This document shows, in pieces, positions 4,911 through 52,782 of a stretch of DNA of 64,000 bases. Each line of letters begins with the position of its first letter. Position 1 is the stretch's first letter. Source of the stretch: Candidatus Woesearchaeota archaeon (GTDB lineage Archaea > Nanobdellota > Nanobdellia > Pacearchaeales > GW2011-AR1). Where the stretch lies: positions 6,336 through 70,335 of the forward strand of contig CAZDXC010000001.1 of NCBI GenBank assembly GCA_964509675.1. Reading direction: 5' to 3'. The notes beneath the pieces are model-generated. The model did no database searches. It saw only the letters and a program-made list of their open reading frames with translations, and had not been told where the DNA came from. The position numbers were made by a program, and so were the translations under genes.

Positions 4911-5612
4911 ATGGATTTATATTCGTTAGTAATTGAAAATAAGTGGATTTTGGAAGTACTTTATGCCCTTGCAATCAGTCTGATTTGTGCAGTTATTGTC
5001 ATTAAAACAGACAGGTTTTTTAAGTTAAGCCTGCATCAAGGAATAAGATATTTCAGAAATGCATTCTTTTTTTATGGGCTTGGATTTATAGCGAGATATA
5101 TTTTTGGAGTTCTTTCCGACTGGTCATTTTCTATTAACTATTTTGTTATGCAAATGATTTTTGAATATTTTCTTGTAATGGCCGGCTTTTTTCTTTTTTA
5201 CAGTCTTGTGTGGAGGAAATTTGAATCTCCTAAAGAAGAATATTTAAGTTCTTTGTTGAATACAAAAATAGCAGTTTTTCATATAATGGCTGTCATAATT
5301 GCGGTCCTCGATTATACATGGCATACTTATTATTTCATGTTTGCTTCGCAAATTATAATTTTCTTCTGTGCATCAATAATCTCTTATGTCAATTACAGAA
5401 CTAACGGAAGACAGCATAAATTCCTCAAGTTTTACTTTATTGCAATGCTTCTTGGATTAGCAGCATGGATATTGAATTTGCTTGCTCCGCTTTATTTTAG
5501 GTGGAATCAGGGAATATTAATCAATATCGGAATAATTAATGTAATGTTCTTTTTATTATTCTTATATGGGGTTATAAAAGTTACAAAGAAAAATGGCAAC
5601 AAGGAAACGTGA
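4911..5612 (+). CDS. multi-pass membrane protein (about 7 TM)
   Basis: Repeated hydrophobic segments; 3' end overlaps the following wHTH gene. Confidence 0.7.
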   Translation: MDLYSLVIENKWILEVLYALAISLICAVIVIKTDRFFKLSLHQGIRYFRNAFFFYGLGFIARYIFGVLSDWSFSINYFVMQMIFEYFLVMAGFFLFYSLVWRKFESPKEEYLSSLLNTKIAVFHIMAVIIAVLDYTWHTYYFMFASQIIIFFCASIISYVNYRTNGRQHKFLKFYFIAMLLGLAAWILNLLAPLYFRWNQGILINIGIINVMFFLLFLYGVIKVTKKNGNKET

Positions 5613-5868
5613 GAGGTTGGACGTTATAAGAGACATACTTCAGACAATAAGGCAAAACAGGGAAATAAAGCCCACGAGGTTATTGTATGCTTCCAATCTT
5701 TCTCCGCAAATGTTTAAGGAATATATAAATGAATTAATTAGCAAGAAGTTTATTAAACTGGAGATAGACGAGAAAGACAAGAAGACTTTTTCTCTCACAA
5801 AAAAAGGACAGGATTTTCTTCAGGAATATAAAGTAATTGAAGAATTTATTGAGAATTTTGGGCTGTAA
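5593..5868 (+). CDS. winged-helix transcriptional regulator (HTH_45/DUF4364-like)
   Basis: R.RLDVIRDIL...KPTRLLYASNLS...FKEYINELISKKFI...FSLTKKGQDFL pattern. Confidence 0.8.
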   Translation: MATRKRERLDVIRDILQTIRQNREIKPTRLLYASNLSPQMFKEYINELISKKFIKLEIDEKDKKTFSLTKKGQDFLQEYKVIEEFIENFGL

Positions 5869-6073
5869 AATTTTCTTCCTTATGATAACTCATGACTACC
5901 TTTACTTCCTGTACTTCAGACCTTCTTAAAATAGCCCTGTTTAATTTTCTTAGAATTTTTATATAATATTCCTGTAAGCTGTCTTTTTCATTAAATCCTC
6001 TCACATCTACTTCATCTCCATAACCCTGGGGAGCTATAAATGTTTTTACCTCAATAATTTTTTCCAAATACAT
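5846..6073 (-). CDS. hypothetical protein
   Basis: 75-aa ORF convergent with the wHTH gene. Confidence 0.5.
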   Translation of the reverse strand: MYLEKIIEVKTFIAPQGYGDEVDVRGFNEKDSLQEYYIKILRKLNRAILRRSEVQEVKVVMSYHKEENFTAQNSQ

Positions 6074-6104
6074 AATTTTTCATTACAGAATTAACTTATA
6101 AATC

Positions 6105-6260
6105 TTACTTTTTTGATTTTCCTCTTTTCTTCAAATTTATCTTTTGGAGTTTTTTGCAGTGGGGGCAGCGAACCATTATCTGTCCTGCCTTGTCTTTTAG
6201 AATTCCGAACTCTTTTTGACATAAGGGATTTTTACACACCTGTAAAAATCTTTTTACCAT
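6105..6260 (-). CDS. small zinc-ribbon protein (51 aa)
   Basis: Below the ORF-track cutoff. Manual translation: MVKRFLQVCKNPLCQKEFGILKDKAGQIMVRCPHCKKLQKINLKKRGKSKK (C-x4-C...C-x2-C). Confidence 0.65.
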   Translation of the reverse strand: MVKRFLQVCKNPLCQKEFGILKDKAGQIMVRCPHCKKLQKINLKKRGKSKK

Positions 6261-6404
6261 GAGATAATCAAGTTGAGGAAATATATAAATCTACCTCATA
6301 CAAATATTTAAAAATGTCTCTTCTTAGTGATATTTATGAGTATTAAATTCGTTGAAGTAGATAAGTTATTTCTATTTATAAAATTGTAAGGAGGATATAG
6401 AAAG

Positions 6405-6716
6405 ATGAAGTTACATGTAGGAAATTTGCCTTTTGCTGTTGATGATAACGAGTTGAAAGAAATGTTTTCTGAATACAATCCAGAAGAAGTGACTCTTATC
6501 AAAGACAAGTTTTCAGGACGTTCAAAAGGTTTTGGTTTCGTAACAATTTCCGATGATGAAGTTGCAAAAAAAGCGATTTCAGATTTGAATGGGAAAGACG
6601 TGCAGGGACGAGAACTTAGAGTTTCTGAAGCAAAGCCAATGGAAGAAAGACCACCAAGAAGAAACTTTGGCGGAAATCGTGGATTTGGCGGAAGAAACTT
6701 TCAGAGAAGATTCTGA
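6405..6716 (+). CDS. RRM (RNP-1) RNA-binding protein with Gly/Arg-rich tail
   Basis: RNP2 KLHVGNLP, RNP1 KGFGFVT, C-terminal RRNFGGNRGFGGR. Confidence 0.92.
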   Translation: MKLHVGNLPFAVDDNELKEMFSEYNPEEVTLIKDKFSGRSKGFGFVTISDDEVAKKAISDLNGKDVQGRELRVSEAKPMEERPPRRNFGGNRGFGGRNFQRRF

Positions 6717-6823
6717 TTAATCTAATTAGAAAAAGCAGGTGATTTCTTTATTTTTTGTGAATTTTATTTTAGTAAAACTTTTTAAATCAGAGTTTCTTTA
6801 GATATTAAATAAAAAGGAGGTGA

Positions 6824-7039
6824 ATGATGGCAAAAAAAGTCGGCAAGGTCATATTTGCAATAGCTATAGTTTTGTTAGTTGTTGGTGGCCTTAATTGGGG
6901 ACTAGTAGGATTGTTGAATTTCAACCTGGTTGACTCTCTATTCGGTTCATCAGTGGTATCAACAGTGATTTATGTGCTAGTTGGTTTATCTGCTCTTTAC
7001 GTAGCATTGGCTAAATTATTCATGAAAAAGAGAAAATAA
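6824..7039 (+). CDS. DUF378 family membrane protein
   Basis: LLVVGGLNWGLVG...NLVD.LFG...IYVLVGLSA; strong SD GGAGGTGA. Confidence 0.85.
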   Translation: MMAKKVGKVIFAIAIVLLVVGGLNWGLVGLLNFNLVDSLFGSSVVSTVIYVLVGLSALYVALAKLFMKKRK

Positions 7040-7071
7040 ACCTGTATAATTTATTTGTTTTTTAGTTTGAT

Positions 7072-7446
7072 TTGAATATTTATCAAGAAGGTGAAAGGAG
7101 GATGAAAATGAAAAAGAAATTTGTTGGAAAGTGGGCTTTTTTAATTGGTTTAGTAGTAGCCATACTTGCGTCTTTTTTAATAGGATATGCAACAACTATC
7201 GCAATAGTATTATTCCTGCTTGGTTTAGTTGTAGGATTACTTAACATATCTGAAAAAGACAGTAATAAGTTTTTACTTGCAGCAATAGCTCTGCTGACAG
7301 GAGGAATTGCAAGTATAAGTGCTCTTTCGATTCTTGGAGTAGTAAGCACTTATCTTGGTTCAATTTTAAGTAATTTTATGGCATTTGTCAGTGCAGCAGC
7401 ATTGGTTGTGGCAATAAAAGCAATTTTTGAAACAGGAAAGAACTAA
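7072..7446 (+). CDS. membrane protein (true start probably ATG near 7101)
   Basis: Four hydrophobic segments, GLLNISEKDSNKFLLA; SD GGAGG before the ATG. Confidence 0.7.
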   Translation: MNIYQEGERRMKMKKKFVGKWAFLIGLVVAILASFLIGYATTIAIVLFLLGLVVGLLNISEKDSNKFLLAAIALLTGGIASISALSILGVVSTYLGSILSNFMAFVSAAALVVAIKAIFETGKN

Positions 7447-7521
7447 ACTAATTTATTTTAATTTTTTATTTTTAATTTTTTATTATAAACATCAAATATT
7501 GAAAGGAGGTGAAAAAAAGAG

Positions 7522-7905
7522 ATGATGACACCAATTGAAATCATAGCATTAGTCTTAATTTCTTTATCAGCACTTAAAATTATCCTTATCCCAAAGGTTT
7601 GGATGAAATATGTTGTTAAGCCTCTTTATTCCAAAGCAGGGATTCTGTTTATAGTAGAATTAATCTTGGCAGGGGTTGTTCTTTATTACCTATTGCAATC
7701 AGGATTGTCAATAGTTCAGATTTTGGCAGTAATAGGATTAGGTGCTTTGCTTACAGGAATGACTTTTGCATGGTACGGGAAAGAAACAATAGCATGGGCA
7801 AGAACAGTGTTAAGAAAAGGAATTTGGAAGAGAGCATGGCTTCCGATATTGATATGGATGGCTCTGATAGTTTGGGGAGCATTGGCATTGTTCAAGGTAA
7901 TCTAA
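7522..7905 (+). CDS. membrane protein
   Basis: Four hydrophobic segments; SD GGAGGTGA. Confidence 0.7.
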   Translation: MMTPIEIIALVLISLSALKIILIPKVWMKYVVKPLYSKAGILFIVELILAGVVLYYLLQSGLSIVQILAVIGLGALLTGMTFAWYGKETIAWARTVLRKGIWKRAWLPILIWMALIVWGALALFKVI

Positions 7906-8004
7906 ATTTTTTTATTTTATTTTTTATTTTTTTATTGTTAATGTAAAAAATCTCTATTGCTTGTTCAACTCACAGGTTTACACTGATTATTATATCATCA
8001 ATCT

Positions 8005-8024
8005 GCGAGCGTTAGCGAGCGATT
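8005..8024. repeat. 20-bp dispersed repeat GCGAGCGTTAGCGAGCGATT, copy 1
   Basis: Exact second copy at 24502-24521. Confidence 0.7.
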
Positions 8025-8098
8025 TTGCGTATAATCCATATTCAACAAAGTCGGGAGTAGAGCGTAATGATTAAATATACTCTTTCCTTTTTTCTTTA

Positions 8099-8284
8099 AT
8101 GAGACGAGTAAATATCAAAGTAATAATTTTCTCATTTATTGCTCTTGGCTTTCTTGCCCTGACTTTCCTTGTTGACTGGCTGTTTATAATCGGTGCTGTG
8201 GTTATGATGTGGCTGAATCAAAGAGAGTTAATGGGGAAGAAGAGGGGAAGGAATAAAAAGGAAGAAAAGATAAGATCTTCATGA
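8099..8284 (+). CDS. small membrane protein
   Basis: Two hydrophobic segments and a basic tail; overlaps the next start by 4 nt. Confidence 0.55.
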   Translation: MRRVNIKVIIFSFIALGFLALTFLVDWLFIIGAVVMMWLNQRELMGKKRGRNKKEEKIRSS

Positions 8285-8934
8285 TAAAGAAAACAACGAT
8301 TGAAATAATCTCTGAAATCCTTAGAAAATTGCCTAAAAAATGGAATGCAAAAAAAGCAATTTTAGAGATGAAGGAAGCAAATTTTAATCAATGGCGACAG
8401 ATGGAATGGATTGGATGGTACTTTGAATACTTATGTCAAAAATATCTAAAAGAAGTTATGGAATTTCATAAAATAAAATATGGAAATGTTAAGTTTGATG
8501 GTTTTTTAGAAGTTCCTTTTGATTTTAAATCTCATGCTATTAATACTGAAAGTCATAAAGTTATAATTAATGATACAGAAGCAACAATAAAAGCGATAAA
8601 AGAGTATGATTATGTAATTGTTATAATGGCAATTGGAGAAGTAGTTTATAATGATAAAGACAGAAGTTTTCAAAAATGGCATGAAAAAATTAAAGGTGGA
8701 AAATCAAAATATGAAGAAGAAAGAATAAAAAGAGGGGCTTTATCAAGATTAAGGAAAACTGATTTTAATCTTAAAGAATTAATGTTTATCAAAATAAATA
8801 AAGAAACGTTAGAAAGATGTGGTTCATTTCAAAAAGATTTCAGAAATGCTAATGGTTCTCTAAGAAGATCTAAAGTCTTACTTGATTTAGAAAAATTAAA
8901 AGATGAAGAGATTATAAAAAAGATAGAATTTTAA
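8281..8934 (+). CDS. putative type II restriction endonuclease (PD-(D/E)XK-like)
   Basis: E..GWYFE helix then FDG...FDFK; convergent with, and overlapping, a methylase gene. Confidence 0.55.
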   Translation: MIKKTTIEIISEILRKLPKKWNAKKAILEMKEANFNQWRQMEWIGWYFEYLCQKYLKEVMEFHKIKYGNVKFDGFLEVPFDFKSHAINTESHKVIINDTEATIKAIKEYDYVIVIMAIGEVVYNDKDRSFQKWHEKIKGGKSKYEEERIKRGALSRLRKTDFNLKELMFIKINKETLERCGSFQKDFRNANGSLRRSKVLLDLEKLKDEEIIKKIEF

Positions 8935-43819: not shown

Positions 43820-46800
43820 TTAATACAAGGCATTCCAATCAGTGCTGTTGCATCCATAATGCTTGTGAGTTGAATTTGAATAATATATTGCCCCCTCTTT
43901 TGCAGCATTGCAAGTAATGGCAGTTGTGTTTGATGCCAATATAATGCTTCCTGAAGTATCTATTGTTAATCTTTTTGTTGGAGTGTATGTAACATTTGCA
44001 GTAAGCCCAGTATTAGTGTAAAATTCAATTCCATTGTAAAATTTAGCAAATGAAGCAGTAGTTCCTGTTGCTACAAATGTTCCAGCAATAGCACCATGCA
44101 AACCTGCTCCTACTGCTCCTCTTGTCGAAGCATCTGCTGTAAGCCAGAGTCCCCCAGCAATATTCTCATCGTCAATTAATGTGAGTCCAAAATTATTATT
44201 TACAATAAGTGCCGGTAAATAACGTCCAGTAATTCTTTGAATTATAAAACCTAATTGCCCTGGGACAGCATTCTGATAAGTTTTCCAGAGCATACCCTCT
44301 TGAGGGTCATCTCTCTTTGTGCTTTTACTACTATCTACAATATCAGCTGCTAGATAAGAATATTTGGTTCCTATTAGTTGTGTTAGTGAAGCATTCGCAG
44401 TTATATTAATTCCTATTTCTGTTCCATCAGAACCAATAACATCAACACCAATTGCCTTGTTTCCATATCCAGATGGAGGTGAAGGAGACAAAGAAGCATT
44501 ACCATCAAATAAAATTGCAGGGTCACATCCTTCAAAACCAGTGGCCATTATTGTATTTGAATATCCTTTCACCCAAACACATACTTGATTTGCAGTGCCG
44601 TCAAATTTTACCCCTATGATTTTAACATTCGCAGTATAATAATCTATATTCACTCCTACATTGCAACCAACAAAACTCCCTCCTACTATTGTTTGTGAAC
44701 TAGCCCTATTGGTTTTAAGACAAGTAGTAGAATTTACGAAGTGGACCTTCTCAACAAGCCCCCAACTTGCATCTCCTCCTGAAACAACATCCCCAGCACC
44801 ATCTACATATAACCCAAGTAATGCATCTCTGAAGGTTACATCTCTGATAGTCCAACGATTCATTAATCTGATTTTTAACAATGTAGCGCTTTTTGTTCCG
44901 GTATTATCTTTAAGATTAATATTTTCGATTATAGGTCCTTGATGTACGAGAGAAGTATTTCCATCAAAAGCAAGCAAAGCCATTCCAGCAGTATCTGCAA
45001 GAAGTGTAACACCCCAACCACCTGATTCTTCGAAAGAAGTTCCTCCTGCTCCGATTAATCTAACGCTTGGTTTGTTTGTTGTGATGTTTGATGTAACTCT
45101 ATATCTTCCTACAGGAAAGAAGATAGTTCCTCCTGCAGTCGGAAGAGAATTTATTGCATTTTGAATTGCAGCAGTATCATCAGTAACTCCATCCCCTTTT
45201 GCTCCATAAGCCCTTACATCAATCCAAACATCAGAACTATTGACTTCCAATCCTTTAGTGCTTATGTTACCTCTTAAATTTAGGTTTCCTGATGAATCAA
45301 GCCTCATTTTTTCATCAGGGGATGCAGTATTTGCCGTGTAGAATACCAAATCTCCCTTGTAAGAACTTAAGCTGTTATTTGTCATTACTCCTGCTATTCC
45401 TGCAATGTTTGCGAAATTAGTATCATCTTTTCTTGAAGAAAAGACTATTTTTGTTCCTTGGTTGCTTGCAGAAGCATAAGTATTTCTAAGTTTTAATATA
45501 TCATAAATTCCTGCTCCCCAAACACCAACATCAACTTGTGTATCTGTAATAATTGAACCCAAATTCAATCCAAATTTTCCAGTGCTGTCAATTTTAAAAG
45601 CATTTATAGTAGGAGATACCATCTGAATCCAAAAATTTCCACTACCATCAGAAGCCAATTTCCAGTTCCTTGCTCCTGTTCTGTTAAGATAAATCGTTGC
45701 TGCAGTAGGACTTACAATTTCAATATCTCCTTGTGGTGCTGCGGTTCCAATTCCAATATACCCTGTTGAGTCATTTACAACAAATGCATTTGCATCTCCT
45801 GTTGTATTAATGTGGAATTTTCCTGATGGAGAGGTTGTTCCGATTCCAACATCCCCCCATACATATAATTTGCTAATTAAAGAGATTAATTGATTATTGC
45901 CTCCAGGTGTTCCGCTCACAAAAGGAGCAAAAATAAAAAAAGGATGCTGCTTTCCTTGAATAGGTCCTGGAGTTATAGAGTTATTAATCATCATTGCAGA
46001 ACCAGGATTAATATTGCTCCCAACAACTGTAAATTGATTGCTTGCTGGAACTGAACGGATAAAACTAATATTTTCCACACCAGTACCAGGAGCAACTAAT
46101 ATATTATCCAAAAGAATTTGGTATTGTATGTAATCTGAAATACTTGGATTAACTCCTAATAAAACTAAAGTATTATTGTCACCGCTTAAATTGGAATTGA
46201 CTTCAAGCCTTGCATTTGAAATTCCAAATTTAGTGACTTGATTGTTGGAAGCATTAAAACCATCCATTAATACAAGCCCATCTGCATTTCCCGTTCCTCC
46301 AGTATCATAAGTAAATTTGTCTAACTGATATACTCCTCCGTAAGAACTATTTACATAAAGAAAATATCCTCCAATAGAATCTGCACGAAAATCATACATA
46401 TAGAAATTGGTGGCTCCTTTTAACAATCTGATAGCATCTCCGTTAGTGTTTGCAAACTGGCATTTCCAGCAGACTGTTCCATAATCTACCCTGTCAGGAA
46501 ATTCTATGAGAGTTTTTGGATTGGCAGTTCCGCTTCCCCTAAAAACTAATCTGCTGGCGTCAGTTATGTGCCAATTATCACTTATTTCTTCAGCAATAAA
46601 CATGGTTCCATTTTCTGCTCCCCCCCATTTAAGTTCAGGATATCTTCCTGCTACCAAAGCACCGCCCTGGTCCCCTTCAAGTCTTACTCCGTGTTTCCAT
46701 GTAATAGTGGAAGTAATTATGTAAGTTCCATGAGGAAAAAATACAGTTCCTCCGCCCTTAGAATCTGCATAATCTATTGCCGCTTGGATAGCAGAAGTAT

Positions 46801-47056
46801 CATCAGTAGCCCCATCTCCGGTAGCTCCAAATGCTCTAACATCAACCCAAGGGCCTTTAGTTGTTAAATCAGTGGCAGTTATATTCGTGTGTTGTCCTGT
46901 TGAATTGTGTTCTGTTTGCAAATATGAATTTAGAATATCCCCCCATGTATCCTTGTCTCCTCCTGGAGTTGGAAGAGAACCTGCTTTTGGTAAACCAATA
47001 ATAAAAACAGCAAAAAATATACTGACTGCAATTAAAAAAACTACCCCCCTTTTCAT
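43820..47056 (-). CDS. 1078-aa secreted protein with two pectate-lyase-3-like beta-helix modules and tail-fibre-like repeats
   Basis: Two copies of W.DVRA.GA.GDG.TDDT.AIQ.AI...GGT.FFP.G.Y; GIGTTSP/GIGTAAP repeats; N-terminal LPTPGGDKDTWGDILN. Confidence 0.85.
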   Translation of the reverse strand: MKRGVVFLIAVSIFFAVFIIGLPKAGSLPTPGGDKDTWGDILNSYLQTEHNSTGQHTNITATDLTTKGPWVDVRAFGATGDGATDDTSAIQAAIDYADSKGGGTVFFPHGTYIITSTITWKHGVRLEGDQGGALVAGRYPELKWGGAENGTMFIAEEISDNWHITDASRLVFRGSGTANPKTLIEFPDRVDYGTVCWKCQFANTNGDAIRLLKGATNFYMYDFRADSIGGYFLYVNSSYGGVYQLDKFTYDTGGTGNADGLVLMDGFNASNNQVTKFGISNARLEVNSNLSGDNNTLVLLGVNPSISDYIQYQILLDNILVAPGTGVENISFIRSVPASNQFTVVGSNINPGSAMMINNSITPGPIQGKQHPFFIFAPFVSGTPGGNNQLISLISKLYVWGDVGIGTTSPSGKFHINTTGDANAFVVNDSTGYIGIGTAAPQGDIEIVSPTAATIYLNRTGARNWKLASDGSGNFWIQMVSPTINAFKIDSTGKFGLNLGSIITDTQVDVGVWGAGIYDILKLRNTYASASNQGTKIVFSSRKDDTNFANIAGIAGVMTNNSLSSYKGDLVFYTANTASPDEKMRLDSSGNLNLRGNISTKGLEVNSSDVWIDVRAYGAKGDGVTDDTAAIQNAINSLPTAGGTIFFPVGRYRVTSNITTNKPSVRLIGAGGTSFEESGGWGVTLLADTAGMALLAFDGNTSLVHQGPIIENINLKDNTGTKSATLLKIRLMNRWTIRDVTFRDALLGLYVDGAGDVVSGGDASWGLVEKVHFVNSTTCLKTNRASSQTIVGGSFVGCNVGVNIDYYTANVKIIGVKFDGTANQVCVWVKGYSNTIMATGFEGCDPAILFDGNASLSPSPPSGYGNKAIGVDVIGSDGTEIGINITANASLTQLIGTKYSYLAADIVDSSKSTKRDDPQEGMLWKTYQNAVPGQLGFIIQRITGRYLPALIVNNNFGLTLIDDENIAGGLWLTADASTRGAVGAGLHGAIAGTFVATGTTASFAKFYNGIEFYTNTGLTANVTYTPTKRLTIDTSGSIILASNTTAITCNAAKEGAIYYSNSTHKHYGCNSTDWNALY

Positions 47057-47197
47057 TATAATTTTATAGATTGCGTTTATTTAAATTTTTTGTTTGAAGT
47101 TTTGATAAAAAATTAATATTTAGACATCATCCATGAGATTGTCAAACCATAGGGAGTTATCATAAAAATTGATTCTCTTGTCAAATGCTGGGAGTTA

Positions 47198-47593
47198 TTA
47201 ATGAAAAATCAAATTTAAGATAATTCCTTCAACAACGAAAAAGAGAGTAGCCCCACCAAAAAGGATTAATATCTTTGTAAATTTGTTCATTTCCAAACTA
47301 TATCTTTTTATTTCTTCACTATGATTGAGATTAATCATAGAAATAGCCAAATCTACCCCTCTTTTTGCGAGACGATACCATCTCTGTTTTTTTTCATCAT
47401 CATTTATTGGGAGTTTTTCAATTTGGCTTTTTGGGATTAATTCAAAAATATCTTGAGCAATTAATAAATCAAGAATATATCTTCTACCTTCAAAATAAGC
47501 CTCAAGTTTTCCATAAACAATTCCATCTGGATAATAGTCTTTAATATCTATCAAAGCCTTCTTTAATTTTTCAAACGAAGTTTCTTCTGTCAT
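47198..47593 (-). CDS. hypothetical protein with C-terminal TM (transposon cargo)
   Basis: 131 aa, overlaps the transposase stop. Confidence 0.65.
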   Translation of the reverse strand: MTEETSFEKLKKALIDIKDYYPDGIVYGKLEAYFEGRRYILDLLIAQDIFELIPKSQIEKLPINDDEKKQRWYRLAKRGVDLAISMINLNHSEEIKRYSLEMNKFTKILILFGGATLFFVVEGIILNLIFH

Positions 47594-48800
47594 TTTTTAA
47601 ACTATTCAGAAGCATATTTTCCCATTTATTAGGATTATTGAACTCTATCCCACACTTCTCCGCAGGAGTTGTTTTGTCTTTAACATTCTTTCGCACAAAG
47701 TTGTGATAAACTTTGAAGCCGTCAGCATAGTCCTGAACATTCTTAACTCCTCTGCGAACTTTGTGAAATTCTTTTTGCTGTGTGTGATGGCTCTCTATTG
47801 CGTTGTTATTCACAACTCTTCGCTGTCCTAAAATTGAAGTATGTTTTATTTTTCTTTCATTTCCATAATTCCTGAATACTTTTCTTGTTGCCTGTTGATA
47901 TGCTTTCAACCTATCAGTTATTATCTGATTGGGCATTTTCTTATTCTGTTCCCACGCTTCTCTAAAAACTTTTTTAGCGTCTTTAATGCTTCTGCCTCTA
48001 CCTGAACTTACAGAAGCCAAAAGAAATTTTGATTTATTGTCAATCACATTCCACAAATAATCAAATTCAGCATTTTTCTTGTCCTTATCTTTTCCTCTCT
48101 TTGTCAAAACCATAGTTTCATCAGCATTCCAAACACCTGAAGTTTTTGGTGTTAATGTCTTTGAATATTTTTCAATTATTTTACTGAATTTTAAAACCCA
48201 ATTTCTTATAGTTTCGTGAGAAATTTTTATTCCGAAAAACTGCATAAACAAATCCGAAATATCACGATAAGATAATCCTTTGAAATAACAATCCATAGCA
48301 AGACAAACTAATTTTTCGTTTCCTTTTATCTTTGGAATTGGACTTAATACAAATCTCTTCTGACAATTCCTGCATTCATATCTCTGCTTATTTCCAAATT
48401 GTGTTTTTCTTATTCCTGATTTAATCAAATCTTCTGAACTACAATAAGGACAGCAATTCTTTTTTGGAGTTTCAATAATCAGTTTTATTTCTTGTTTTAC
48501 TTCTGGCTTGACTTCATATTTTGCTTTGATTTTTTCAAATAGGATAATCGCTTTGATATGCTTACAATACAAACCTTTTCCACGACATCTTATTTCAAAG
48601 TCCTTACATTCACAAGAATAACTATCAAGATGTGTAACCTTATATTTTCTCTCTGAATTTTGGCTTGGGACTAAATAAGTAAATTCATCTAATATCTGTG
48701 GCTCTGCGATTTCTAATATTGCCTTTGCTCTTTCATTTCTCCATTCAGAGAAGTTTTTGATATATTCTTGTGTTGTCTGCATGCTATCTTTATTTTGCAT
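47571..48800 (-). CDS. DDE transposase (IS6/IS240-like catalytic domain) with SWIM-like and InsA-like zinc fingers
   Basis: CECKDF...CKHI; CPYC...KSG...QRYECRNC; HTH; WNADET, ITDR, NAIESHH triad intact. Confidence 0.9.
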   Translation of the reverse strand: MQNKDSMQTTQEYIKNFSEWRNERAKAILEIAEPQILDEFTYLVPSQNSERKYKVTHLDSYSCECKDFEIRCRGKGLYCKHIKAIILFEKIKAKYEVKPEVKQEIKLIIETPKKNCCPYCSSEDLIKSGIRKTQFGNKQRYECRNCQKRFVLSPIPKIKGNEKLVCLAMDCYFKGLSYRDISDLFMQFFGIKISHETIRNWVLKFSKIIEKYSKTLTPKTSGVWNADETMVLTKRGKDKDKKNAEFDYLWNVIDNKSKFLLASVSSGRGRSIKDAKKVFREAWEQNKKMPNQIITDRLKAYQQATRKVFRNYGNERKIKHTSILGQRRVVNNNAIESHHTQQKEFHKVRRGVKNVQDYADGFKVYHNFVRKNVKDKTTPAEKCGIEFNNPNKWENMLLNSLKNDRRNFV

Positions 48801-48821
48801 GCAATATTAAGGATTTTAGGC

Positions 48822-48872
48822 TATTTAAATCTTTGCATGCAATAATTTTTACGCATGCAAAGGTATTTAAAT
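48822..48872. promoter_or_regulatory. divergent promoter with central operator-like inverted repeat
   Basis: TATTTAAATC on both sides of CTTTGCATGC-N12-GCATGCAAAG (48831-48862). Confidence 0.6.
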
Positions 48873-48892
48873 CATGCTTAATTAATAATCGC

Positions 48893-49960
48893 ATGACATG
48901 GACTAAACCACTTTATGGAAAAACCAAAGTTGATAAAGCAGGACATGTTCTTACTAACGAGAGTTCTACTGAAGAAGAAAAAGAAGAAGCACTAACAATT
49001 CTCAATAATTGGCGTTCTTCACATGGATACCCTATGAATACTTTTCAAGCAAGATTAAGACAGATGTCCAAAAAAGTAGATAATGATTCTTTAGTTGTTC
49101 AGCGACTAAAAAGAGTTCCTTCCATAGTAAAAAAATTGAACAGATACCAAACCAAAACTATGAGTTTATCGCAAATGCAGGATATTGCAGGATGTAGGTC
49201 TGTTCTTTCTGATGTAAATAAAGTCCGAGAACTAACAGAAGTATACAGAAAAAGTCGTGGATTAAAACATAAAAGAATTAGAGAAAAGGATTATATAAAA
49301 AATCCAAAAAAAGATGGATACAGAAGTGTGCATTTGATTTACAAATATAAAAGTGACAAAATAAATACTTATGATGGCTTGCTTATTGAAATTCAAATTA
49401 GAAGTAAAATTCAGCATGCATGGGCTACAGCCATAGAAATAGTTGATTTGTTTACAAAGCAAGCGATTAAATCTAATGAGGGAGAAGAAGAATGGAAAGA
49501 ATTTTTTAAATTGGTTAGTTCCGCTTTTGCGAAGATGGAAAAACAAAAAGAGGTAAAAGACACACCAACAAATAATAATGAACTCTATACGGCAATAAGA
49601 GAAAAAGTTGAGAAATTAAAAATATTTTCAAAAATGAATAATTGGTCTAAAGCATTAAAAGTTATAGAGCCAAAACTTAAAGAGTGGAAATTCTTTTTAC
49701 TTGAATTAGATGTATCTGATGAAACAAATCCAGAATTAAGTATTAGGGGTTATCCTGAAGAAGGAGAAACTATTGCTACAGAACATTATTTAGAAGCAGA
49801 AAAGATACAAAGAATTAATAAAAATAAAGATAGAGATGTTGTTCTTATTGGTGCAAAATCTATAGAAGAATTAAAAAAAGCATACTTAAATTATTTTGCC
49901 AATTCAAGGGATTTTTTAGCATATCTAAAAAATTACTTAGAAAAAAGAGGAGAGGTTTAA
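48893..49960 (+). CDS. RelA/SpoT (SYNTH)-domain protein (probable start ATG 48893)
   Basis: QRLKRVPSIVKKL, MQDIAGCR, DYI..PK.DGYRSVH, IEIQIRS..QHAWATA.E. Confidence 0.88.
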   Translation: MTWTKPLYGKTKVDKAGHVLTNESSTEEEKEEALTILNNWRSSHGYPMNTFQARLRQMSKKVDNDSLVVQRLKRVPSIVKKLNRYQTKTMSLSQMQDIAGCRSVLSDVNKVRELTEVYRKSRGLKHKRIREKDYIKNPKKDGYRSVHLIYKYKSDKINTYDGLLIEIQIRSKIQHAWATAIEIVDLFTKQAIKSNEGEEEWKEFFKLVSSAFAKMEKQKEVKDTPTNNNELYTAIREKVEKLKIFSKMNNWSKALKVIEPKLKEWKFFLLELDVSDETNPELSIRGYPEEGETIATEHYLEAEKIQRINKNKDRDVVLIGAKSIEELKKAYLNYFANSRDFLAYLKNYLEKRGEV

Positions 49961-49961
49961 A

Positions 49962-50891
49962 ATGAAAAAGAAAATCTTAAATAAAAGTTTAACAAGAGCA
50001 AACAAAGCAAAAAATGATGAATTTTATACTCAATTAACAGATATTGAAAAAGAATTAAAACACTATAAAGAACACTTCAAAGACAAGGTAGTTTTTCTTA
50101 ATTGTGACGACCCTGAAGAGAGTAGTTTTTGGGAATACTTTGCCTTGAACTTTAAAGTTCTCGGATTAAAGAAATTAATTGCAACGCATTTTGATTCAAA
50201 AAAACCAACTTATAAGTTAGAAAAAAATAACGGAAATACAATAAAAACAAAGTTAAAACAGAATGGAGATTTCAGAAGCCCTGAATGTATTGAGATTCTT
50301 AAAGAAGTGGATATTGTTGTAACAAATCCACCATTTTCTTTATTCAGGGAATATGTTGCTCAATTAATGGAATATAATAAAAAATTTATAATCCTTGGAA
50401 ATCAAAATGCAATAACTTACAAAGAAACCTTTGAACTGATTAAGGAAAATAAAATCTGGCTCGGTGTTGATAATGGTGGAACAAAATGGTTTAAAGTCCC
50501 AGAACATTATGACATAACCACAGAATCGAGGAAAAAAATAGAGAATGGGAAAAAGTTTTTTAGTATGGGTAGTGTTCTCTGGTTCACTAACCTTGATACT
50601 AAAAAGCGACACGAAGATTTAATTCTCTACAAAAAATATTATGGTAATGAAGAGGATTATCCTAAGTATGATGACTATGATGTTATCAATGTAAATAAAG
50701 TAAGCGACATTCCAGTTGATTATAGGGGGGCTATGGGAGTTCCCATAACTTTTTTAGATAAATATAATCCAGAGCAATTTGAAATTTTAGGAATTGCTAA
50801 TAGTGCGAGGTGGATTGGATTTGAATGCTATACTCTAATTGACGGAAAGAAAATATATAATAGGATAATTATTAAGAATAAGAAAATTTAA
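49962..50891 (+). CDS. adenine-specific methyltransferase, EcoRI family
   Basis: AKNDEFYT...IEKEL.HY, LNCDDP, VVTNPPFSLFREY, GVPITFLDKYNP.QF. Confidence 0.9.
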   Translation: MKKKILNKSLTRANKAKNDEFYTQLTDIEKELKHYKEHFKDKVVFLNCDDPEESSFWEYFALNFKVLGLKKLIATHFDSKKPTYKLEKNNGNTIKTKLKQNGDFRSPECIEILKEVDIVVTNPPFSLFREYVAQLMEYNKKFIILGNQNAITYKETFELIKENKIWLGVDNGGTKWFKVPEHYDITTESRKKIENGKKFFSMGSVLWFTNLDTKKRHEDLILYKKYYGNEEDYPKYDDYDVINVNKVSDIPVDYRGAMGVPITFLDKYNPEQFEILGIANSARWIGFECYTLIDGKKIYNRIIIKNKKI

Positions 50892-50915
50892 ATAACGGAG
50901 TTCTGATATTAAATT

Positions 50916-51998
50916 ATGAAAATAGAACTGAAAAGGATACCCATTAAAGAAGTAGTAGAAAGATATTCAAATGATGACGAAGAAGGAGTTATCGGATATG
51001 ATGGGAAACTGAATATCCGCCCAAAATATCAAAGAGAATTTGTCTATAAGGATAAACAAAGGGACGCTGTAATTGAAACAATAAGAAAGGGCTTTCCGCT
51101 TAATGTGATGTATTGGGTTAAGAGCAAAGACGGAACTTTTGAGGTAATGGATGGACAGCAAAGAACTATAAGTTTTTGTGAGTATATTGCTGGGAATTTC
51201 TCGTTAAATCATCAATACTTTCACAATCTTGAAAAGGATGAGAAAGAGCAAATCCTCAAATATGAATTAATGATTTATTTCTGTGAGGGAACTGACAAGG
51301 AAAAATTAGATTGGTTCAAAATTATAAATATAGCAGGGGAAAAATTATTTGACCAAGAATTAAGAAACGCAATCTATACAGGAACTTGGCTCTCTGACGC
51401 AAAAAGATATTTCAGCAAGACGAATTGTCCTGCTCATAATCTCGCAAGCGACTATATGAAAGGCGTGGCGATTCGCCAAGATTATTTGGAAACTGCGATA
51501 GATTGGATTAGCAAGGGAAAGATTGAGGAATATATGGCAAAACATCAACACAAGCCCAACGCAAACGAGTTATGGTTATATTTCCAAAGTGTTATAAATT
51601 GGGTAAAAGCAACCTTTACCAAATATCGTAAAGAGATGAAGGGCGTTCCTTTTGGAATTCTCTATAATGAATTTAAGGATAAGGAACTTGATTCAAAGAA
51701 ACTTGAAAAAGAAATAACAAAACTAATGCAAGATGAGGATGTTACTAAAAAATCAGGCATTTATCAATATGTTTTAACTCGGAATGAAAAACACCTTAAC
51801 ATTCGTGCTTTTACAGATAAACAAAAAAGAGAAGCATACGAAAGACAAAAAGGAATTTGTCCAAAATGTAAAAAGTTCTTTGAAATAGAAGATATGGAAG
51901 CAGACCATATAAAACCTTGGCACGATGGCGGAAAGACAACAGCGGAAAATTGTCAAATGTTATGCAAACAGGATAATAGGATTAAATCAGGAAAATAA
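50916..51998 (+). CDS. DUF262 (ParB-like) + HNH endonuclease, GmrSD-like
   Basis: RP.YQREFVY, DGQQRT, F..IN..G..L..QELRNA; C-terminal CPKC...EADH..PW..GG.T...NCQ.LC..DN. Confidence 0.9.
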   Translation: MKIELKRIPIKEVVERYSNDDEEGVIGYDGKLNIRPKYQREFVYKDKQRDAVIETIRKGFPLNVMYWVKSKDGTFEVMDGQQRTISFCEYIAGNFSLNHQYFHNLEKDEKEQILKYELMIYFCEGTDKEKLDWFKIINIAGEKLFDQELRNAIYTGTWLSDAKRYFSKTNCPAHNLASDYMKGVAIRQDYLETAIDWISKGKIEEYMAKHQHKPNANELWLYFQSVINWVKATFTKYRKEMKGVPFGILYNEFKDKELDSKKLEKEITKLMQDEDVTKKSGIYQYVLTRNEKHLNIRAFTDKQKREAYERQKGICPKCKKFFEIEDMEADHIKPWHDGGKTTAENCQMLCKQDNRIKSGK

Positions 51999-52122
51999 AA
52001 CTCAACTCCCTTCACTTGACAGGAATTTTATCTCCCGAAGATTTGACAATCTCATCATCCATAAAATTTATAAACCTGAATTACTCCTAAAAATCATCTA
52101 GAAATTATTCTATAATATTAAA

Positions 52123-52782
52123 ATGGACGCGGATATAAGCAATCAAATTTTGAAATCAGGAACAACAATAGTTGGAATTATATGCAAAGATGGTGTTGTA
52201 ATGGCTTCTGACAGGCAGAGCACAGCAGGCAATATAATTATGGATAAGGGTTCTGAAAAAATAATTCTTGTGAACAATTATCTTGCCATAGCTTCTACAG
52301 GGATGGTTTCTGATATTCAGAGAGCAATCAAGTATACTGCAGCAGAATTAAAATTAAAGGAATTGCGTTCAAGATCCCGTCCGAGTGTCAAACAGGGAGC
52401 AAATCTTTTAGCAAGTATAATTTATCAATCAATAAGACAGCCGGCAATGCTGCAATTTATTGTTGGAAGTATTGTAGGAGGTTTTAATGAAGATGGTTCA
52501 ACAGAATTGTATACAATAGACCCTTCAGGAGGTTTAAAACGTATAAAAGATTATGATGCGAATTTTGGAAGCGGAATGCCTTTTGTTTTGGGGCTCTTGG
52601 AAAGACAATATAGAAAAGATATGAGTATTGAAGAGGGAATAAAATTGGCTATAGAAACAATAAAATCTTCAACTCAGAGAGACACAGGAAGCGGTTTTGG
52701 AATTGATGTATACTCTATCACAAAAGATGGAATAAAAAGAGTGGTGTCGCAGGAAATTCAGCCAAGTTTCAAAGAAGATTAA
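52123..52782 (+). CDS. psmB: proteasome beta subunit
   Basis: KSG/TTIVG, DRQST.G, GSG, A...RD..SG. Confidence 0.95.
   Translation: MDADISNQILKSGTTIVGIICKDGVVMASDRQSTAGNIIMDKGSEKIILVNNYLAIASTGMVSDIQRAIKYTAAELKLKELRSRSRPSVKQGANLLASIIYQSIRQPAMLQFIVGSIVGGFNEDGSTELYTIDPSGGLKRIKDYDANFGSGMPFVLGLLERQYRKDMSIEEGIKLAIETIKSSTQRDTGSGFGIDVYSITKDGIKRVVSQEIQPSFKED

Follow-up and report, generated by a model that had tools for sequence, protein, structure and literature searches.

A block of 4.9 kb separates a pectate-lyase-like gene from the proteasome beta subunit gene psmB in the genome of a Candidatus Woesearchaeota archaeon (contig CAZDXC010000001.1), which raises the question of what this block is, where exactly it begins and ends, to which family of mobile elements it belongs and how it came to lie beside psmB. 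Within the 64,000 nucleotides of this contig that were analysed (the window), positions 47135-52053 very probably represent a unit transposon (a "transporter" insertion sequence, IS) that is intact, was inserted recently and belongs to a large IS6-related family of DPANN archaea. The unit combines a single intact transposase gene with four other genes, among which are a predicted Type II restriction-modification (R-M) pair and a homologue of the fused toxin-antitoxin CapRel, and it adjoins the psmB promoter on its upstream side. This promoter-adjacent target, which recurs in the relatives of the element, is the strongest feature of the family and was absent from the original prediction made for this DNA, in which a transposon with defence cargo had been proposed.

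The inserted unit, its empty site and its relatives

The empty site was reached through close psmB homologues (87-89% identity) located on long contigs, an exact-protein look-up of the psmB product of the window having returned no match. On either side of the insertion, locus L091 shares the gene order of the window, with Mre11/Rad50-like genes and a pectate-lyase-like gene up to 47089, and psmB followed by an aCPSF1-like gene from 52057 onwards. Its alignment skips window positions 47090-52056, and that of L092 resumes at 52055. When the element and one copy of its target-site duplication (TSD) are taken out, the window aligns base for base to L091, L092 and L094. The empty sites present a single TCAATCCAT (L091) or GTCATCCAT (L092, L094), followed by AAAATTTATAAA; upstream of psmB, L092 and L094 both read one GTCATCCAT, then AAAATTTATAAACC. 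The whole unit is absent from these sites and one pair of TSDs flanks it in the window, which is what defines a unit transposon or transporter IS. As for the neighbourhood, the psmB side of the insertion (psmB on the plus strand) is conserved among close relatives, unlike the pectate-lyase side, where the surface protein encoded on the minus strand (window 43820-47056) has 1078 amino acids (aa) here and 640 aa in L091, and where a 109-aa open reading frame (ORF) is found instead in L092.

The ends of the unit read GAGATTGTCAAA, with G at position 1 and T6-G7-T8, and therefore start with GAG, not TG. Their inverted repeat reaches 27 nt at 85%. The window contains a single perfect 12-bp inverted repeat with a flanking 9-bp direct repeat, and 60 simulated windows contained none, by which a chance repeat as the origin of the ends was excluded. 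An integrase-borne island was also considered and rejected, as there is no integrase in the element.

The comparison with relatives covered 9 genome and 80 metagenome loci, plus IMG/VR contigs. Close homologues of the transposase (64-79% identity) number in the hundreds, and the named ones all belong to Nanoarchaeota, Pacearchaeota or Woesearchaeota. At least 237 metagenomic relatives of the transposase were found, and the wider family comprises 161 clusters (50% identity) at E values up to 1e-30, many of them full-length at 30-44% identity. A motif search with the TGTCAA...GGGA sites of the window retrieved only about a dozen relatives. A motif-free scan, requiring a 14-nt inverted repeat with at most three mismatches together with a perfect 9-bp direct repeat, identified 23 complete relatives containing the transposase gene, to which an IMG/VR contig added one more, giving 25 elements with that of the window. 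The complete relatives measure 2.8-6.9 kb and carry one to five cargo ORFs, and all 24 are flanked by perfect 9-bp duplications. A decayed 1.8-kb copy was observed in L008 (1141-2943), in which the transposase has lost about 107 N-terminal residues and the place of the cargo is taken by two small ORFs for membrane proteins. This copy retains, all intact, its 9-bp duplication, both ends with their four binding sites, and the TATA-like octamer at offset 4 (see below).

Each end of every element carries a bipartite motif, TGTYRM-N5/6-GGKWG, in a terminal and a subterminal copy, spaced by +27 nt on the cargo side and by +39 or +40 nt on the transposase side. The half-sites vary among elements (TGTCAA, TGTTAA or TGTCGC, combined with GGGAG, GGTTG, GTGGC or GGGAC); all four copies agree within an element, and the half-site types track the transposase tree. 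Such co-variation is the pattern expected of transposase binding sites, and the transposase is proposed to bind these bipartite sites.

The transposase itself has a SWIM domain (C63, C65, C79, H81), a zinc finger (C117, C120, C143, C146) and a DDE core (D227, D296, E336, with K343), and the DDE, K and zinc-binding residues listed here are invariant across 29 homologues. Matches above the respective cut-offs were obtained for Pfam DDE_Tnp_IS240 (56.2 bits, cut-off 27), SWIM (22.4 bits, cut-off 19.6) and the NCBIfam IS1/IS1595 zinc domain of the IS1/InsA type (31.6 bits, cut-off 28). Among the NCBIfam family models IS6 (NF033587) is by far the best (112.9 bits, E 1.5e-32), followed by IS1 (49.6) and IS256 (34.4). 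Among annotated relatives in plasmids, the closest are "long" IS6 transposases of the ISCpe7 type from Clostridium (residues 117-392, 27% identity), and the names given by PGAP to the relatives are only "DDE-type integrase/transposase/recombinase" or "IS1/IS6 family transposase".

The TATA box of the transposase gene lies 30-45 nt upstream of the ATG and is flanked by palindromes that are specific to each element and found at the same position in relatives: GCATGC repeats in the window and in L037, TATACCTAATAGGTATA in L048, L050 and L077, and TTACTTATATAAGTAA in L052 and L080. These palindromes look like putative operators. Eight relatives, and not the window, also have a small zinc-ribbon ORF of 60-84 aa divergent from the transposase gene.

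Much of the original prediction was borne out by these comparisons: the complete unit with one intact transposase gene and four further genes, the two TGTCAA-N5/6-GGGAG sites at each end (which proved to be conserved in the family), the SWIM domain joined to an IS1/InsA-type zinc finger, the confinement of named records to DPANN archaea, the homologous transposases with related ends and variable cargo, the empty site upstream of psmB and, by homology, the defence cargo.

Several observations nevertheless weigh against the interpretation given above. Two loci, L073 (489-6319) and L084 (10-5260), have the ends and no target duplication; such loci could have arisen when one copy recombined with another, or through intramolecular events. 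Identical transposases (P0107 and P0062) were each encountered at one locus only across many samples, so that a recent move by any single copy is not supported. The IS6 score of the transposase (112.9 bits) is below the NCBI cut-off of 125 for NF033587. The structure model of the transposase has low confidence (predicted local distance difference test, pLDDT, 63); its best match in the PDB is ISCth4, an IS256-family transposase, and a Foldseek search with this model returned only generic matches of the DDE/retroviral-integrase fold, with no IS6-family transposase among the PDB matches. For these reasons the structure match was set aside as a basis for family assignment. Finally, transposition of the element is reconstructed from static sequences, and the defence activity of its cargo is likewise predicted.

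Table 1. Features of the element and its target site, in positions of the window.
Feature	Coordinates	Strand	Remarks
Left target-site duplication, ATCATCCAT	47126..47134		9 bp; matches 52054-52062; single copy at the empty site of relatives
Whole unit transposon	47135..52053		4,919 bp; limits follow the 9-bp duplication rule from all 25 elements
Transposase-side terminal inverted repeat (TIR), GAGATTGTCAAACCATAGGGAGTTA	47135..47159	+	12 perfect positions, 21/25 matches to the opposite end; holds terminal bipartite site TGTCAA-N6-GGGAG (47140-47156)
Subterminal bipartite site, transposase side, TGTCAAATGCTGGGAG	47179..47194	+	39 nt inward of the terminal site
131-aa ORF	47198..47593	-	overlaps the 3' end of the transposase gene; hydrophobic C-terminal stretch
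Transposase, 409 aa	47571..48800	-	SWIM, four-Cys zinc finger, helix-turn-helix (HTH), DDE core
Divergent promoter region, transposase gene / cargo	48801..48892		GCATGC palindromes around TATA box AAAGATTTAAATAG (minus, transposase strand)
CapRel-like fused toxin-antitoxin, 355 aa	48893..49960	+	RelA/SpoT toxSAS plus C-terminal domain; Pfam RelA_SpoT 69.9 bits
Type II N6-adenine DNA methyltransferase, EcoRI-methylase family, 309 aa	49962..50891	+	Pfam PF13651 411 bits; PADLOC MTase_II E 4e-122
Restriction endonuclease, DUF262/GmrSD_N + HNH, 360 aa	50916..51998	+	Pfam GmrSD_N, HNH; PADLOC REase_II PDLC03418 E 3.8e-149, full length
Subterminal bipartite site, cargo side, reverse complement TGTCAAGTGAAGGGAG	52006..52021	-	27 nt inward of the terminal site
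Cargo-side TIR, reverse complement GAGATTGTCAAATCTTCGGGAGATA	52029..52053	-	holds terminal bipartite site 52032-52048
Right target-site duplication, ATCATCCAT	52054..52062		9 bp; identical to the left copy
Target determinant outside the element, AAAA + TTTATAAA	52063..52074	+	BRE/TATA-like element of psmB; conserved in the empty sites of L091, L092 and L094

Movement and target choice

The conserved sites, together with homology, suggest the following course of transposition. The transposase would bind the terminal and the subterminal bipartite site at each end, pair the two ends and join their 3' ends to the target with a 9-bp stagger. All DNA from the cargo-side end up to the transposase gene is carried along with the element; the 131-aa ORF is located on the other side, downstream of the transposase gene. 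Copy-in through a cointegrate, later resolved by host recombination, has in our estimate about an even chance and appears slightly likelier than cut-and-paste movement, which is a serious competitor. Where it could be checked, the element is present in one copy per genome, and most copies have clean duplications, both of which would suit cut-and-paste; the same can be said of ISCth4 as the best match of the structure model, given that IS256 elements move by this route. On the other hand, the closest family by sequence is IS6, whose studied members form cointegrates only, and the loci without duplications, L073 and L084, are what would be expected to remain after intramolecular replicative events or recombination between copies, a thin hint that fits replicative or recombinational events. 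Excision footprints were not seen at the sites inspected, though none are expected at sites that were never occupied.

As regards the vehicle, three IMG/VR contigs classified as viral (L095, L096 and L097) carry the element. L097 has a complete copy of 4,889 bp (5201-10089) with a Type IIG-like methylase gene, flanked mostly by ORFans plus another methylase gene, and a viral or plasmid vehicle for the element is possible.

Archaeal core promoters consist of a purine-rich B recognition element (BRE) directly upstream of the TATA box, and it is beside such a landmark that the elements are found. The 25 target sites, when rebuilt and oriented, consist of the 9-bp duplication, AA, NN and either TTTATAAA or TTTAAATA, often with C as the next base, so that the motif at insertions can be written AA-NN-TTTAWAWA. 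A TATA-like octamer with at most one mismatch is present at offset 4 in 21 of the 25 insertions (11 of them exact), compared to 0-3 of 25 at each of 15 other offsets; with an octamer rate of 2.4% in AT-rich background, the binomial P is about 1e-30. Adenines occupy positions +10 and +11 in 20 and 23 of 24 sites, respectively, and T never occurs at positions 7 and 8 of the duplication. The orientation of the element is free, with the octamer on the cargo side at 15 sites and on the transposase side at 10. An ORF starts 21-55 nt past the octamer in ten cases, and in L028 it is a tRNA-Trp gene that starts 25 nt past it. The same BRE/TATA consensus precedes the transposase genes themselves. Taken as a pattern across the sites, this argues that the family directs its insertions to the upstream margin of archaeal promoters, at a distance of 4 bp from a BRE/TATA-like element. 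An octamer at offset 4 is missing from loci L073 and L084, which share their ends with L075 and L077.

In the window, strand transfer would have occurred 4 bp upstream of the BRE/TATA-like AA-NN-TTTATAAA of psmB, of which the octamer is located at 52067-52074 and the psmB ATG at 52123. No gene is interrupted, and the psmB promoter remains intact because the duplication restores the bases beside the BRE. It might be argued that the promoter-adjacent position reflects selection, near-random insertion having been followed by the survival of intergenic copies in compact genomes. DPANN genomes are indeed gene-dense, and the evidence comes entirely from fixed copies in assemblies; however, we consider this explanation improbable, since selection for harmless sites cannot yield an octamer fixed at one offset or adenines fixed at two positions, and single-base precision of this kind points to targeting rather than survival bias.

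How the promoter would be recognised is a more speculative matter. Rather than the bare DNA sequence, the transposase might read TBP/TFB bound to and bent on the BRE/TATA, perhaps by means of its SWIM domain, and insert at a set distance upstream; it would then be a prokaryotic DNA-transposon counterpart of the Ty3/TFIIIB system, an idea that we hold to be rather doubtful. A hint toward recognition of the promoter complex is offered by a second type of cargo transposon from the same organisms, in L026 (3751-8813), in which a SWIM domain is combined with an unrelated core beside a TATA box. This element of 5,063 bp has perfect 17-bp inverted repeats (GGCTTTGTTTAATAAGT), a 9-bp duplication and methylase cargo; its 417-aa transposase joins an N-terminal SWIM domain to a DDE_Tnp_1 (IS4/IS5-type) core, and a TATA octamer lies 6 bp away. 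A homologue of this transposase with 57% identity is encoded in L098 (11538-16465), followed by Type I-like M, S and PD-(D/E)XK genes. In the literature searched, no description was found of promoter-targeted archaeal transposition, or of such targeting by any prokaryotic transposon.

Relation to IS6 and the reading of the termini

The family is IS6-related and yet falls outside catalogued IS6 on several defining features. It shares with IS6/IS26 the IS240-type DDE core with K seven residues past E, the zinc finger and HTH that precede this core, and the TIR hallmark. In the IS26 family the conserved TIR positions have been reported as G1, G or A at position 2, and T6-G7-T8 (PMC8477213), and GA starts have been catalogued in archaeal IS6 members (PMC6807381). 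The TIR of the window (GAGATTGT) and those of relatives (GGGCTTGT, GGTGTTGT and GAGAGTGT) keep the G1 and T6-G7-T8 positions, so the ends do not separate the element from IS6, as had been claimed for them. What does set it apart is a longer list. Catalogued IS6 elements are typically 0.7-0.9 kb and at most 1.8 kb long, with a single ORF, simple TIRs and 8-bp duplications. By this published description, the present family differs in the 9-bp duplication of all 25 elements and in a size of 2.8-6.9 kb compared to 0.7-1.8 kb, to which are added one to five cargo ORFs, a subterminal site at each end, the SWIM domain, an identity of only about 27%, DPANN hosts and the promoter-adjacent target. The separation from IS6 that had been proposed thus stands as far as duplication length, size, subterminal sites, SWIM domain and multi-gene cargo are concerned, and fails for the ends. 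The nearest catalogued groups are the long clostridial clades of IS6/IS26, namely the ISCpe7 group (clade h/VII, with an N-terminal zinc finger) and ISTet2/ISHahy6 (clade i/VIII, with a zinc finger and an extra N-terminal domain) (PMC7986276, PMC6807381), and the family adds a further case to the open debate on the borders of IS6 (PMC6807381).

Two other classes of element were considered for the unit and rejected. An IS21/Tn7-type element was discarded, as there is no IstB, TnsC or MuB-type ATPase and no TnsA, and the transposase is of another family. Tn3-family unit transposons have a large Tn3-type DDE transposase, inverted repeats of about 38 bp, a 5-bp duplication, and a resolvase with its res site; here a 409-aa IS6-like transposase and a 9-bp duplication are found, with no recombinase gene.

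Given the IS6-like catalytic core and TIR hallmark, the unit could also be a plain member of IS6, or else a pseudo-compound transposon of that family, with the cargo placed between two IS copies, which is the classical way for IS6 to move cargo (PMC7986276). This is very improbable in the present case: the unit has one transposase gene and no extra copy of an end internally, the duplication brackets all 4.9 kb, and the empty sites lack the whole unit, and catalogued IS6 members, apart from being smaller, mostly have 8-bp duplications, with one member reported to carry a passenger gene.

The exact termini of the unit transposon had also been read differently. On the window alone this is understandable. 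The 13-mer TGAGATTGTCAAA occurs in exactly two copies in the 64 kb, perfectly inverted (starting at 47134 on the plus strand, and at 52042-52054 on the minus strand), and TCATCCA is duplicated; the bases abutting the ends are T and A, complementary by chance, and because of this complementarity the window alone cannot tell 5-, 7- and 9-bp duplications apart, all of which fit. The perfect 13-bp repeat described before therefore exists as such, and the TIR of the element comprises 12 perfect base pairs of it, one base per end having been misread. The reading with TG...CA ends and a 7-bp TCATCCA duplication (or 14-bp repeats with a 5-bp CATCC), and with ends unlike IS6, can be dismissed almost entirely, since it is off by one: it needs a duplication with A as its first and T as its last base, and 20 of the 25 elements have a different one (e.g., CTTGGAACT in L023 and ACTAATCGA in L052), so that the extra T and A cannot be part of the element, and the 9-bp ATCATCCAT derived from the relatives takes the place of both shorter duplications. 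In relatives with TGTCAA...GGGAG ends, the 9-bp duplications directly abut a terminus located 5 nt before TGTCAA. An independent assembly is consistent with the corrected terminus: Logan contig L090 (SRR14802574_18801) breaks exactly at window position 47135, a G that is its last base, and not at the T of 47134. The break also suggests that in this sample the transposon end is joined to more than one sequence, whether through another copy of the element, a circle junction or heterogeneity among strains.

Cargo and comparison with known systems

Cargo genes are located inward of the cargo-side end, up to the transposase promoter, and most of them are encoded on the strand opposite to the transposase gene. 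In the window, the methylase and nuclease genes are 24 bp apart and, as predicted from homology, form a Type II R-M gene pair. The CapRel homologue matches PADLOC PDC-S33 over its full length (E 3.7e-119) and CapRel SJ46 in the PDB (7ZTB, E 8e-43, residues 9-350 aligned to 15-370), and is predicted to have the toxSAS N-terminus fused to a C-terminal antitoxin/sensor domain that characterises CapRel. For the 131-aa ORF no match was obtained in Pfam, NCBIfam or PADLOC, and homologues at the same position were identified only in L002 and L023.

R-M or DNA methylase genes are carried by 20 of the 25 elements (Types I-like, II, IIG and III). The pair of an EcoRI-like methylase and a DUF262-HNH nuclease is present in six elements, and the CapRel homologue in the window and L037. 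Other cargo includes Type III Mod and Res, Type IIG fusions, a C5 methylase, an ApaLI-like nuclease with its methylase, other Type II methylases, and Type I-like M and S. In four backbones whose transposase modules are 89-93% identical at the DNA level, this module is all that is common and the cargo is unrelated; in at least one pair, L075/L073, the first ~80 nt of the cargo-side end also match. No gene of a recombinase or integron-like kind was seen that would account for this exchange of cargo.

The R-M pair and the CapRel homologue are expected to protect the host from viruses and, acting as addiction modules, would also make it costly to lose the element. Studies of CapRel have dealt with bacteria and phages, and a CapRel-type toxin-antitoxin in a DPANN archaeon suggests inter-domain transfer.

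In 2019, cargo-carrying DNA transposons were listed as a class undetected in archaea (PMC6563490). The present family indicates that they are common in DPANN archaea, as judged from the number of its relatives and clusters, and provides a concrete means by which R-M systems, as well as at least one abortive-infection toxin, can spread and be shuffled among ultra-small archaea, for which few other mobile elements are known. Insertion just upstream of the BRE/TATA would amount to a safe-haven strategy. It makes testable whether a transposase can read the archaeal promoter complex, and it may provide an insertion tool for archaea by which cargo is placed beside promoters with genes undisturbed. 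A description of a DPANN, SWIM or IS6 cargo transposon family was not found in the literature searched, and the promoter-adjacent target preference lifts the interest of the family further.

Known systems resemble the family in different respects. ISDsp3, the only IS6 member reported with a passenger gene (PMC7986276), likewise consists of one transposase and one pair of inverted repeats moving internal genes; it holds one hypothetical gene and is present in one copy, whereas in the present family cargo is the rule, is exchanged between near-identical backbones and mostly consists of R-M or defence genes. The transposon-like R-M units of bacteria (Furuta et al. 2010, PMC2853133) also have inverted repeats, a short duplication and an empty site in a relative. 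They were chosen after removal of mobility-linked R-M systems and thus come without an associated transposase, with no archaeal case among them, whereas here the transposase is on board and the host is archaeal. CapRel SJ46 (PDB 7ZTB; PMC9712102) shares full-length homology with the window protein, with toxSAS and a C-terminal regulatory domain, the difference being that the present homologue is archaeal and transposon-borne.

More than one transposase site per end, arranged asymmetrically (+27 versus +39 here), is likewise found in IS21, Tn7 and Mu, although the present element lacks the IstB, TnsC or MuB-type ATPase and the TnsA of those systems. With respect to target choice, the closest likeness is to the eukaryotic long terminal repeat (LTR) retroelements Ty3, Ty1 and Tf1, which target promoters by means of host-factor-tethered integrases, in the case of Ty3 via TFIIIB (TBP and Brf1). 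In common with these are the fixed position upstream of a transcription unit, the sparing of genes and a landmark of the TBP/TFIIB type; the mobile element in this case is, however, a DNA transposon.

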